DNA from: Candidatus Nanohalarchaeota archaeon
GTDB lineage: Archaea > Nanohalarchaeota > Nanosalinia > Nanosalinales > Nanoanaerosalinaceae
DNA length: 51,665 bases
Reading direction: 5' to 3'
Assembly: GCA_022729255.1 (NCBI GenBank)
Contig: JALDAG010000003.1
Coordinates: 1 to 51,665, forward strand
In this document: positions 40,944 to 42,442 of the stretch, one piece after another
Layout: the number at the start of each line of letters is the position of its first letter
How positions within the stretch are numbered: position 1 is the first letter of the stretch
Program-made: the position numbers and the translations under genes
Notes under the pieces: model-generated
What the model was told of the DNA's origin: nothing
Database searches by the model: none
What the model saw: the letters and a program-made list of their open reading frames with translations, nothing else

Positions 40944-41480
40944 TTACAACGGCTGCTCGATAACCTGTTTTAATGTCTTAACAGTGATAAAACGGTATTT
41001 TTGTAGGTCTTCTACAGTGAACTGAAACTCCTCCGAGGTCTCCGCCAAACAACAATCTTTGACAAGAGTCACCGAATAACCCCTGTTGTATGCGGATTCC
41101 ACGCATTCCCTTACACCGGCATTTATGGCTAATCCTGCTATGTAGAGGTGCTCAACACTCATATCTATGAAGAAATCGTCGACATATGTTTCGATGAAAG
41201 GATCCCACCCCTTTCTTCCAAAAATTTCTATGCCTTCTTCCATAGGTATCTCATCGATTATATCGGATCTCAGGTTGTTTCTGGGAAATACATCCTCTTC
41301 TTCGTTGTCACCGTACTTCTTCGTATATGCTATAGGCGACTGATTTTTGATTGCTTCATGAACCAAAGTCTTGGCTTTTTTTTCCACTATACTGGTTCTT
41401 CCAAGGTAATAAACCGATGATTCGTCCTTCCACTCGTTCTGAAAATCTACCAAAAGCAAACCTGAATTTGAGGCCCACAT
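40944..41480 (-). CDS. Isochorismatase-family hydrolase (atypical active site)
   Basis: LLLVDFQNEW, IAG...V...AYNRGY.V.LVKDC. Confidence 0.85.
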   Translation of the reverse strand: MWASNSGLLLVDFQNEWKDESSVYYLGRTSIVEKKAKTLVHEAIKNQSPIAYTKKYGDNEEEDVFPRNNLRSDIIDEIPMEEGIEIFGRKGWDPFIETYVDDFFIDMSVEHLYIAGLAINAGVRECVESAYNRGYSVTLVKDCCLAETSEEFQFTVEDLQKYRFITVKTLKQVIEQPL

Positions 41481-41550
41481 AGAAAATAGGTTTGTGGCGG
41501 AGTATAATAATATTTTACCCTCCTGAACGGAACAAAATAAACAAATGTAA

Positions 41551-41780
41551 ACCGCTTAAGGAAGCCTCCAAAACCTTTTTAAAGGTGTGGAAGGTACTTT
41601 ATGGTAGATTTAAGATGGTTAATACTGAGGCCACGTTTTGCGGAACTAGAAGCTTTCTGAAGCTGTTCCATAGAGCCTCAGCTATTTTCACACATTATAT
41701 CCTGAATATTGTGTGGGGATAGATAAAAAGTAGCTCGTCTTTAACCTTCTGGGACTAAACCCGGAACGGAAGAAGGCGGT
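41551..41780 (+). ncRNA. Candidate structured RNA, unknown class
   Basis: Closing helix ACCGCTT/AGGCGGT encloses at least six nested helices, several with G-U pairs that work only on the + strand. Confidence 0.6.
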
Positions 41781-41809
41781 CGAAAAATTTCTAAATAATT
41801 CACCCTAAA

Positions 41810-41938
41810 ACTGCTCTGGTGTAACTTTTCCCGTGCCTGTACGCCTCCACTTCTTATGCGGGAAAGGAAGATCCTTTTCAGGGTTCTTGGTAACACACCG
41901 GGTTTCTGGAGATACCTGTTCGAGCCAGGTGGGCAGTA
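41810..41938 (+). ncRNA. tRNA-like RNA without anticodon loop, with 64-nt D-loop insertion
   Basis: Acceptor ACTGCTC/GGGCAGT+A, D stem GTGT/ACAC, G18G19, T arm ACCTG-TTCGAGC-CAGGT. Confidence 0.75.
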
Positions 41939-41957
41939 TCCCGAGGAGGGAACAAAA

Positions 41958-42140
41958 ATGCAAGGAACAAAAGTTTTGGAAACAAGTATGCCAAATAAAA
42001 CTCAAAACAGCGGTCAAAGCGTTCGATACGAATGCGAGGTATGTGGAAAAACCACAACGTTTAAGAACGTACTTAAAGAAGACAATAGATCTATTGTGTT
42101 GTGCAAAAAGCATTTTAGAAGAAGCGTTTTAGATCTTTAA
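41958..42140 (+). CDS. Small putative zinc-finger protein (CxxC...CxxH), 60 aa
   Basis: GGAGG SD 8 nt before ATG; YECEVCG...VLCKKH. Confidence 0.65.
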   Translation: MQGTKVLETSMPNKTQNSGQSVRYECEVCGKTTTFKNVLKEDNRSIVLCKKHFRRSVLDL

Positions 42141-42160
42141 GTTTGATGACCAGAGCAGAA

Positions 42161-42194
42161 TTGATAGAGATATAATCTCTGTCAACAACTTTTT
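42161..42194 (+). terminator. Hairpin plus oligo-T
   Basis: TTGATAGAGA-TATAA-TCTCTGTCAA followed by CAACTTTTT. Confidence 0.5.
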
Positions 42195-42285
42195 GACTAG
42201 AGCAAGGATCTTGAAGCCAGAGCTTTAATCCTTATTTGAACAGTTTGGAAGTATGGAAGAGAACATAAACTTTTTGACAACTTCA

Positions 42286-42360
42286 TAGCGGGGAGTGGAT
42301 TTGAACCACCGACCTCCGGGTTATGAGCCCGACGAGCACTCCTGGCTGCTCCACCCCGCT
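42286..42360 (-). tRNA. Initiator tRNA-Met(CAT), CCA not encoded
   Basis: A1-U72 pair, three G-C pairs closing the anticodon stem, loop CTCATAA. Confidence 0.97.
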
Positions 42361-42442
42361 ATCTTTTGAATTTCTTGGTAAAGGTTTTAAAGTTAGTGTT
42401 GGTGCGGACAAATTTATATGGAGAGAAGACCAATTTTTTCGT

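Follow-up and report, generated by a model that had tools for sequence, protein, structure and literature searches.

The stretch of DNA analysed here (the window: contig JALDAG010000003.1 of assembly GCA_022729255.1, forward strand, positions 1 to 51,665, 51,665 nt in all) comes from a Candidatus Nanohalarchaeota archaeon of the family Nanoanaerosalinaceae and carries, at 41810–41938, a tRNA-like element without an anticodon loop, situated between two very small open reading frames (ORFs). The source assembly is archaeal, has a size of 0.95 Mb in 56 contigs and is 91% complete. The nanohaloarchaeal (DPANN) genus Candidatus Nanoanaerosalina has been described previously (PMC9765267), and the accessible part of the text of that paper makes no mention of the element. 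An earlier sequence-only reading of the window had described the element by itself; beyond that, we find that it belongs to a conserved two-ORF cassette with the order TATA box, ORF1, a hairpin bounded by AGUAG and CGAA, the tRNA-like element, a Shine–Dalgarno (SD) sequence and the zinc-finger ORF2:

41576–41583, + strand: TATA-like box TTTTTAAA, the putative promoter for the entire cassette, invariant in four genus-level homologues
41615–41722, + strand: ORF1, a 35-aa micro-ORF (MVNTEATF...LNIVWG*)
41729–41784, + strand: conserved hairpin with invariant flanks AGUAG (5') and CGAA (3') (alignment A8)
41810–41938, + strand: tRNA-like element without an anticodon loop, 129 nt
41943–41950, + strand: SD-like GAGGAGGG, 5 nt past the discriminator; an SD-like run lies between element and AUG in 9/9 loci
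41958–42140, + strand: ORF2, a 60-aa small zinc-finger protein (CExCG ... LCxxH/C-F; alignment A6)
42190–42194, + strand: first T5 run downstream of the promoter, putative terminator; none occurs between 41581 and 42190

Within the element, the 7-bp acceptor stem, the D stem, the T arm and the G18G19/U54U55C56 elbow are those of a canonical tRNA. By contrast, the 7-nt anticodon loop is absent, and the element falls short of the RF00005 score of at least 29 bits that marks a canonical tRNA. Its parts, all on the + strand, are as follows:

41810–41816 / 41931–41937, + strand: acceptor stem, 7 bp, ACUGCUC/GGGCAGU
41817, + strand: U8
41819–41822 / 41893–41896, + strand: D stem, GUGU/ACAC
41823, + strand: A14
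41825–41888, + strand: D-loop expansion (insert) of 64 nt with two hairpins
41825–41867, + strand: hairpin 1 of the expansion, 11 bp (41825–41835/41857–41867) with a 21-nt loop
41844–41848, + strand: CCUCC in the loop of hairpin 1
41868–41888, + strand: hairpin 2 of the expansion
41889–41890, + strand: G18G19, followed by U-A
41898–41909, + strand: 12-nt hairpin CCGGG-UU-UCUGG, which replaces the anticodon arm
41914–41930, + strand: T arm, ACCUG-UUCGAGC-CAGGU, with a 5-bp stem and the loop UUCGAGC
41938, + strand: discriminator A

A14 and A15 come after the 5' strand of the D stem, the insert is placed between positions 16 and 17, and the variable region (AGAU) comprises 4 nt. The acceptor stem, U8, A14, D stem, G18G19, T arm, 12-nt hairpin and 64-nt insert all lie exactly where the sequence-only reading had put them. 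The element is not called by ARAGORN, whether the intron option is on or off; Rfam gives no match to it at gathering score and none at E ≤ 10 in the 351 nt of 41700–42050; and it remains unmatched at E ≤ 10 both in a genome-wide RF00005 search and with the tRNA clan. A search for a parental tRNA with the two ends of the element (blastn-short against its own genome) yielded no related tRNA.

The sequence has been recovered independently. Positions 41560–42103 of the window are identical (0 differences) to contig X4 from a separate salt-lake run, and an X3 contig matches 41717–41960, again with 0 differences; X3 also carries a variant contig with 30 differences, which agrees with a sister species. 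The DNA itself may stem from run X1. Because the X4 and X3 contigs have identical letters, an assembly artefact, a possibility raised together with the original description, is ruled out for the tRNA-like element.

BLAST located the element in all three other species of the genus. A covariance model (R1) constructed from three genus members was then searched in 70 genomes of the order, and its strong matches were confined to the element's own family (7/9 genomes). Eight loci were accepted from R1, namely, those of the present genome (G000), G001, G003 and G002 in genus g1, G007 in g5, and two loci in G008 and one in G004 in g2, whereas a ninth member, G004:C1, was found through the neighbouring conserved hairpin. 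The nine members represent three genera of one nanohaloarchaeal family, with one or two copies of the element per genome. In the nine-member alignment, which was fitted to the model and consists of kin (three genera and one paralogue pair), 98.2% of 220 cells are paired compared with 40–54% when the partners are slid, 16 of the 31 pairs display compensatory, that is, both-sided, change, and the covariation score is reached by 0/500 shuffles. The eight-member alignment gives 98.5% and 14/31, respectively. Helices 1, 2 and 5 are paired to 98–100% across the nine sequences, compensatory change is found in 3/5 pairs of the T-arm stem, and the base of the 12-nt hairpin at the anticodon position (helix 4) is kept and covaries. 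Covariation extends into the D-loop expansion as well: six of the 11 pairs of hairpin 1 change on both sides within the genus, and hairpin 2 covaries as judged by eye.

These data bear directly on whether the element might be a tRNA pseudogene in decay or a fold that arose by chance. Such an origin would be compatible with its single-sequence folding energy, which is not beyond chance (z = -0.89 versus shuffles), and ordinary tRNAs reach 16–27 bits with the element's covariance model, so that the element is tRNA-derived in shape. The pairing, the compensatory changes and the shuffle result contradict it, as does the unchanged place of the locus in genomes where the G+C content of the element ranges from 49% to 70%, and we give decay or chance hardly any credence. 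The minimum free energy (MFE) fold of the element omits the D stem. Because of the covariation together with the family-wide conservation, we regard the element, as far as comparative sequence data can tell, as a selectively maintained, non-decoding RNA and not a chance fold or a product of decay; the proposal that it is a selected tRNA mimic, with the elbow kept and decoding lost, is supported in the same way.

Several other candidates were discarded. A 69-nt R1 match in G009 (contig C51) is part of a tRNA array with 15 matches, reaches 51.4 bits against RF00005 and has neither the conserved hairpin nor ORF2. The array itself (locus L027) packs its 15 matches into 3 kb, and the 69-nt tRNA-like gene has an anticodon loop of only 4 nt (CCGGA-UACA-UCCGG). 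Weak R1 matches in G004:C3, G025, G029, G036 and G012 (E 0.06–0.94) were also dropped; the four that were inspected (all but G029) display neither a T loop nor a cloverleaf. A metagenome scan by the core pattern returned 19 loci and no homologue, two of the loci corresponding to one ordinary bacterial-type tRNA and the rest to coding sequence.

Conservation among the nine members centres on acceptor stem, T arm and elbow. G18G19 (read by eye), the UUCRA T loop and G53-C61 are found in 9/9 members and the D-stem sequence GUGU/ACAC in 8/9. Acceptor stems differ and covary (ACUGCUC, CCCGCCU, GCCGUCC, GCUGCCU, GCUGCCA), all four nucleotides occur as the discriminator, and pair 3:70 is U-A in six members and C-G in three, with G:U in none of the nine. 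Since acceptor sequence and discriminator vary, it is the structure that is selected, not aminoacylation identity, and the pattern argues against any conserved identity of this kind. The D-loop expansion is present in 9/9 members with a length of about 20 to 85 nt. The position of the anticodon arm is occupied by a 12–14-nt hairpin in g1 and g5, by a 5-bp stem with a 10-nt loop in G004:C1, and by a 5-bp stem with 41–61 extra nt in g2. CCUCC, which equals the anti-SD that the 16S rRNA of this organism carries at its 3' end, occurs in expansion loops of 5/8 elements and is absent from 3/8; the G003 element holds three copies (p about 0.002 versus shuffles), whereas the CCUCC loop has been lost in G002 of the same genus.

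The genomic setting invites the idea that the element is a tRNA that does decode, split into parts or interrupted by introns of an unusual kind, and whose mature form would regain an anticodon loop. Indeed, ARAGORN predicts many tRNA genes with long introns in G000 (up to 123–127 nt in tRNA-Thr and tRNA-Met), and it finds no tRNA-Leu(UAA/UAG) and no tRNA-Arg(GCG) in this 91%-complete assembly. However, the anticodon loop is still absent once the D-loop insert is taken out, and the loops at the anticodon-arm position measure 2–10 or 41–61 nt among the members, with no 7-nt loop in any and no triplet common to them. Neither the discriminator nor the acceptor stem is conserved, and the variable region is 4 nt long and therefore cannot be that of a tRNA-Leu or tRNA-Ser. 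A crude scan for bulge–helix–bulge motifs, which recovered the expected motif in at most 1/6 intron-bearing control tRNAs, gave no insert-spanning candidate that recurs among the four genus members. We consider a decoding role very improbable.

The flanking parts of the cassette are conserved in their own right. An ORF of 30–35 aa stands at the place of ORF1 in 8/8 loci. Between G000 and G003, the differences in ORF1 by codon position are 7/6/16, and there are eight synonymous codons compared with 0–2 in the other frames, a third-position bias of the kind seen in coding sequence. The C-terminus is NIVWG (NIMWR in other genera), the stop codon varies between TAG, TGA and TAA, and a long helix inside ORF1 covaries between genera as judged by eye (CUGAGGC/GCCUCAG versus GACUGGUGCU/AGCACCUAGUC). 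The public protein search lists no gene for ORF1. In the hairpin that follows, 6 of the 11 predicted pairs show compensatory change (alignment A8, 10 sequences). The hairpin model (R2) matches only within the family (9/9 genomes and the element's own genome), with 0/60 elsewhere in the order; the hairpin is mostly found at two loci per genome, and each inspected one stands after a small ORF. Further copies were recorded at G000:C12:25914-25975 (-) and in L085, L087 and L088. The AGUA/GAA of its flanks presumably resembles the loop-E/sarcin–ricin motif. Rfam gives no match at 41380–41830, and an assignment of the conserved upstream region to signal recognition particle RNA, RNase P RNA or 5S rRNA was rejected, all three being located elsewhere in the genome.

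ORF2 has homologues of 50–60 aa across the family, detected at E ≤ 1e-5 in nine family genomes, its own included. Against Pfam, it reaches no family over the cut-off and all zinc-finger matches are sub-threshold; a search of 5.8 billion proteins returned only ORF2 itself, a profile search only its own lineage and unspecific C2H2 repeats, and PDB sequences gave nothing significant. Its identification as Rpp21 was rejected, since Rpp21 is encoded on contig C7. The public gene call lists ORF2 as a 94-aa protein (window 41856–42140), the first 34 residues of which are read through the tRNA-like element, and this version is likely a gene-calling artefact.

The position of the element within the cassette is tightly kept. 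In 9/9 loci, its 3' end lies 14–21 nt upstream of the AUG with the SD in between, and the distance from the hairpin to the element is 10–25 nt. In the high-GC genera, just 10–14 GC-rich nt separate the two, which therefore leaves no room for a promoter, whereas in the window's genus the spacer upstream of the element is 25 nt long and AT-rich. Boxes similar to the putative promoter (TTTATAAA/TTTTTAAA) are found 30–40 nt upstream of ORF1 in other cassettes, and archaeal transcription terminates at oligo-T. Genera g1, g2 and g5 have the element behind the hairpin of cassette A, and g2 alone also has it behind that of cassette B. In cassette A of genus g4, ORF1, the hairpin and ORF2 are all present, and the place of the element is taken by a T-rich spacer of ~100 nt with a TATA-like box, so that the element appears to occupy the slot of a terminator and promoter.

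We propose, at roughly even odds (a probability of about 0.5), that the element is a t-element, a tRNA-shaped processing signal cut by RNase P and tRNase Z that would separate two cotranscribed cistrons. It stands where the sister genus has an apparent terminator and promoter; furthermore, what is conserved in it is what RNase P and tRNase Z make use of, and the genome encodes these enzymes. The acceptor/T-arm stack and the elbow are the parts read by both enzymes, and the parts of the element that vary are those the enzymes ignore. RNase P RNA (160.9 bits), Rpp21, tRNase Z (340 bits) and a CCA-adding enzyme were all identified in the genome. A non-canonical cloverleaf within a longer transcript and next to a functional RNA, as expected of a t-element, would fit the sequence context, with no intervening T5 run and no promoter room in the high-GC relatives. 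A short two-cistron transcript would run from the promoter through ORF1, the AGUAG...CGAA hairpin, the element, the SD and ORF2 to the oligo-T run, and within it the element would fold so that acceptor and T arm are stacked and D loop and T loop form an intact elbow. RNase P, by cutting at 41809/41810, would leave an ORF1 mRNA ending in the conserved, protective hairpin, whereas cleavage by tRNase Z past 41938 would give the ORF2 mRNA a 5' end 4 nt upstream of its SD, and a tRNA-like RNA of ~129 nt would be set free by the two cuts. The sequence-only reading had offered a processing signal, a decoy and a sensor without ranking them; the context favours the first, and a test of SD pairing, described below, produced nothing.

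Several observations weigh against a mere processing signal. Such a signal needs neither a strictly conserved D-stem sequence nor a CCUCC loop motif, and it needs no D-loop expansion, yet the expansion is kept in all members; these three features hint at an added or different role. The AT-rich 25-nt spacer in the window's genus could hide a promoter of the element's own, and the large insert beside G18G19 might hinder recognition of the elbow. Moreover, Holzle and colleagues reportedly saw in 2012 that most predicted Haloferax tRNA-like elements were uncleaved in vitro.

The same features lead to a possible, if rather unlikely, alternative in which the tRNA-like RNA, released or independently made, is itself the stable product and serves as a decoy, sensor or scaffold, its expansions carrying the function. 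Invariance of the D-stem sequence, the universal presence of the expansion, the covariation of hairpin 1 within the genus, the anti-SD-like CCUCC with its threefold occurrence in G003, and the low copy number of the element all agree with it. On the other hand, the expansions vary between genera in sequence as well as in length, CCUCC has disappeared from one species of the same genus, and genus g4 manages without the element. Such an RNA might serve the ribosome, the micro-proteins encoded beside it or some protein that binds tRNA. Against this, no protein partner with a recognised fold for tRNA binding was found, and ORF2 matches no family.

The constant distance to the AUG, the intervening SD and the identity of CCUCC with the organism's own anti-SD are also what one would expect of a cis-acting translational regulator of ORF2, in which the ribosome-binding site is hidden or exposed by the CCUCC loops or by the bulk of the element. 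Two 'b' paralogues of the element (L033:1649-1670, and L087 just 3' of 1399, on the - strand) are of the same tenor: after these, the SD (AGGUGA) is followed by a start–stop, AUG-UAG or AUG-UGA, and there is no ORF2. However, the best duplex between the element and its SD-containing trailer is no better than in dinucleotide shuffles in 9/9 members (z between -0.37 and +1.87, with p ≤ 0.05 reached by none), the MFE structures show pairing of SD and element for some members only and at differing places, and CCUCC is missing in three of the eight elements. Sequestration of the SD was rejected on the negative duplex test and the inconsistent folds, and regulation of ORF2 in cis in general seems doubtful to us.

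A broader conjecture, which we likewise hold to be improbable, is that the element is the central RNA of a system particular to this lineage, in which a tRNA mimic whose expansions bear anti-SD motifs works with both flanking micro-proteins. For example, ORF2 could bind the element, or the element could dock on the ribosome, driving or gating initiation 14–21 nt downstream, and the conserved start–stop of the 'b' paralogues could be covered by this idea as well. If true, DPANN archaea would possess a regulator of translation that is shaped like a tRNA and is of a novel type.

Several features lie around the cassette or elsewhere in the genome. In the convergent spacer past ORF2, TTGACYAGAG(C) is repeated in 2–5 copies (window 42147–42227); each of the genus's four species has the repeats, those in L002, L003 and L004 holding the corresponding position, and they are complementary to nt 4–11 of the tRNA-like element (GCUCUGGU). 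They are not enriched genome-wide (3 matches versus about 6 expected) and were not found in other genera. A tRNA-Met gene at 42285–42361 (- strand) converges on ORF2; its A1-U72 pair and the three G-C pairs at the bottom of its anticodon stem mark it as the initiator type. In the G000 genome, the ARAGORN list also includes a predicted tRNA-Ile(UAU). Finally, a weak tRNA match of 53 nt (17.8 bits) at G000:C55:14377-14429 resembles a T arm with the 3' acceptor strand, whereas its 5' part is not tRNA-like; the match could represent half of a tRNA or another tRNA fragment.

Returning to the t-element that we favour, confirmation of its cleavage would mean that tiny symbiotic archaea punctuate mRNAs by means of their tRNA-maturation machinery. 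The family offers a natural case in which the D loop and anticodon arm have been expanded or deleted with the elbow kept, and it may help to define which substrates RNase P and tRNase Z accept. It also allows annotation to be corrected, given that gene callers read ORF2 through the element (94 instead of 60 aa) and miss both ORF1 and the RNA.

Processing signals of tRNA-like shape are well established for organelles and for a single rRNA operon of haloarchaea. Our search of the literature on tRNA-like elements in Nanohaloarchaea or DPANN, and on RNase P/tRNase Z signals in archaeal mRNAs or polycistronic transcripts, found nothing comparable, and as judged from it, there is no earlier account of a conserved, covarying tRNA-like family set between protein-coding cistrons in a free archaeal genome. 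The parallels drawn in the sequence-only reading, mascRNA and the t-element before the Haloferax 5S rRNA, are in our judgement the right ones. In the case of mascRNA/MALAT1, a tRNA-like structure with a crippled anticodon loop is cut by RNase P, which makes the structure-protected 3' end of the upstream RNA; in the nanohaloarchaeal cassette, the AGUAG...CGAA hairpin would be the protecting structure. mascRNA is, however, eukaryotic and, to our knowledge, has no D-loop insert, and the nanohaloarchaeal element matches no Rfam tRNA-clan member at E ≤ 10. Mimicry of the acceptor, T arm and elbow without an anticodon is also displayed by the tRNA-like domain of transfer-messenger RNA (tmRNA) and by bacterial YrlA (Y RNA-like) mimics. 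Unlike tmRNA, the element has no G3:U70 and no tag reading frame, and its D stem is complete; no tmRNA was found by ARAGORN, and Rfam is without a match on the element. In plant mitochondria, t-elements at mRNA ends serve as signals in cis that direct RNase Z and RNase P (Forner et al. 2007, PMC1920247). Like the element described here, they are non-canonical cloverleaves; they coincide with 5' or 3' ends of mRNAs and are released as small RNAs (PMC1920247). The plant elements are dispersed, tRNA-derived and belong to another domain of life, whereas the nanohaloarchaeal element is fixed in one cassette and carries large expansions. The closest archaeal counterpart is the Haloferax volcanii t-element before 5S rRNA, which is reported to be a substrate of RNase P and tRNase Z (Holzle et al. 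2008, 2012, cited in PMC4326828). Both are non-decoding tRNA-like structures of archaea that are, or in the present case would be, embedded in a longer transcript and define the end of a neighbouring RNA (PMC4326828). Compared by description, the two differ in that the Haloferax element precedes an rRNA, whereas the nanohaloarchaeal one, for which cleavage is proposed here, lies between two protein-coding micro-ORFs, carries a 20–85-nt D-loop expansion and forms a covarying family.
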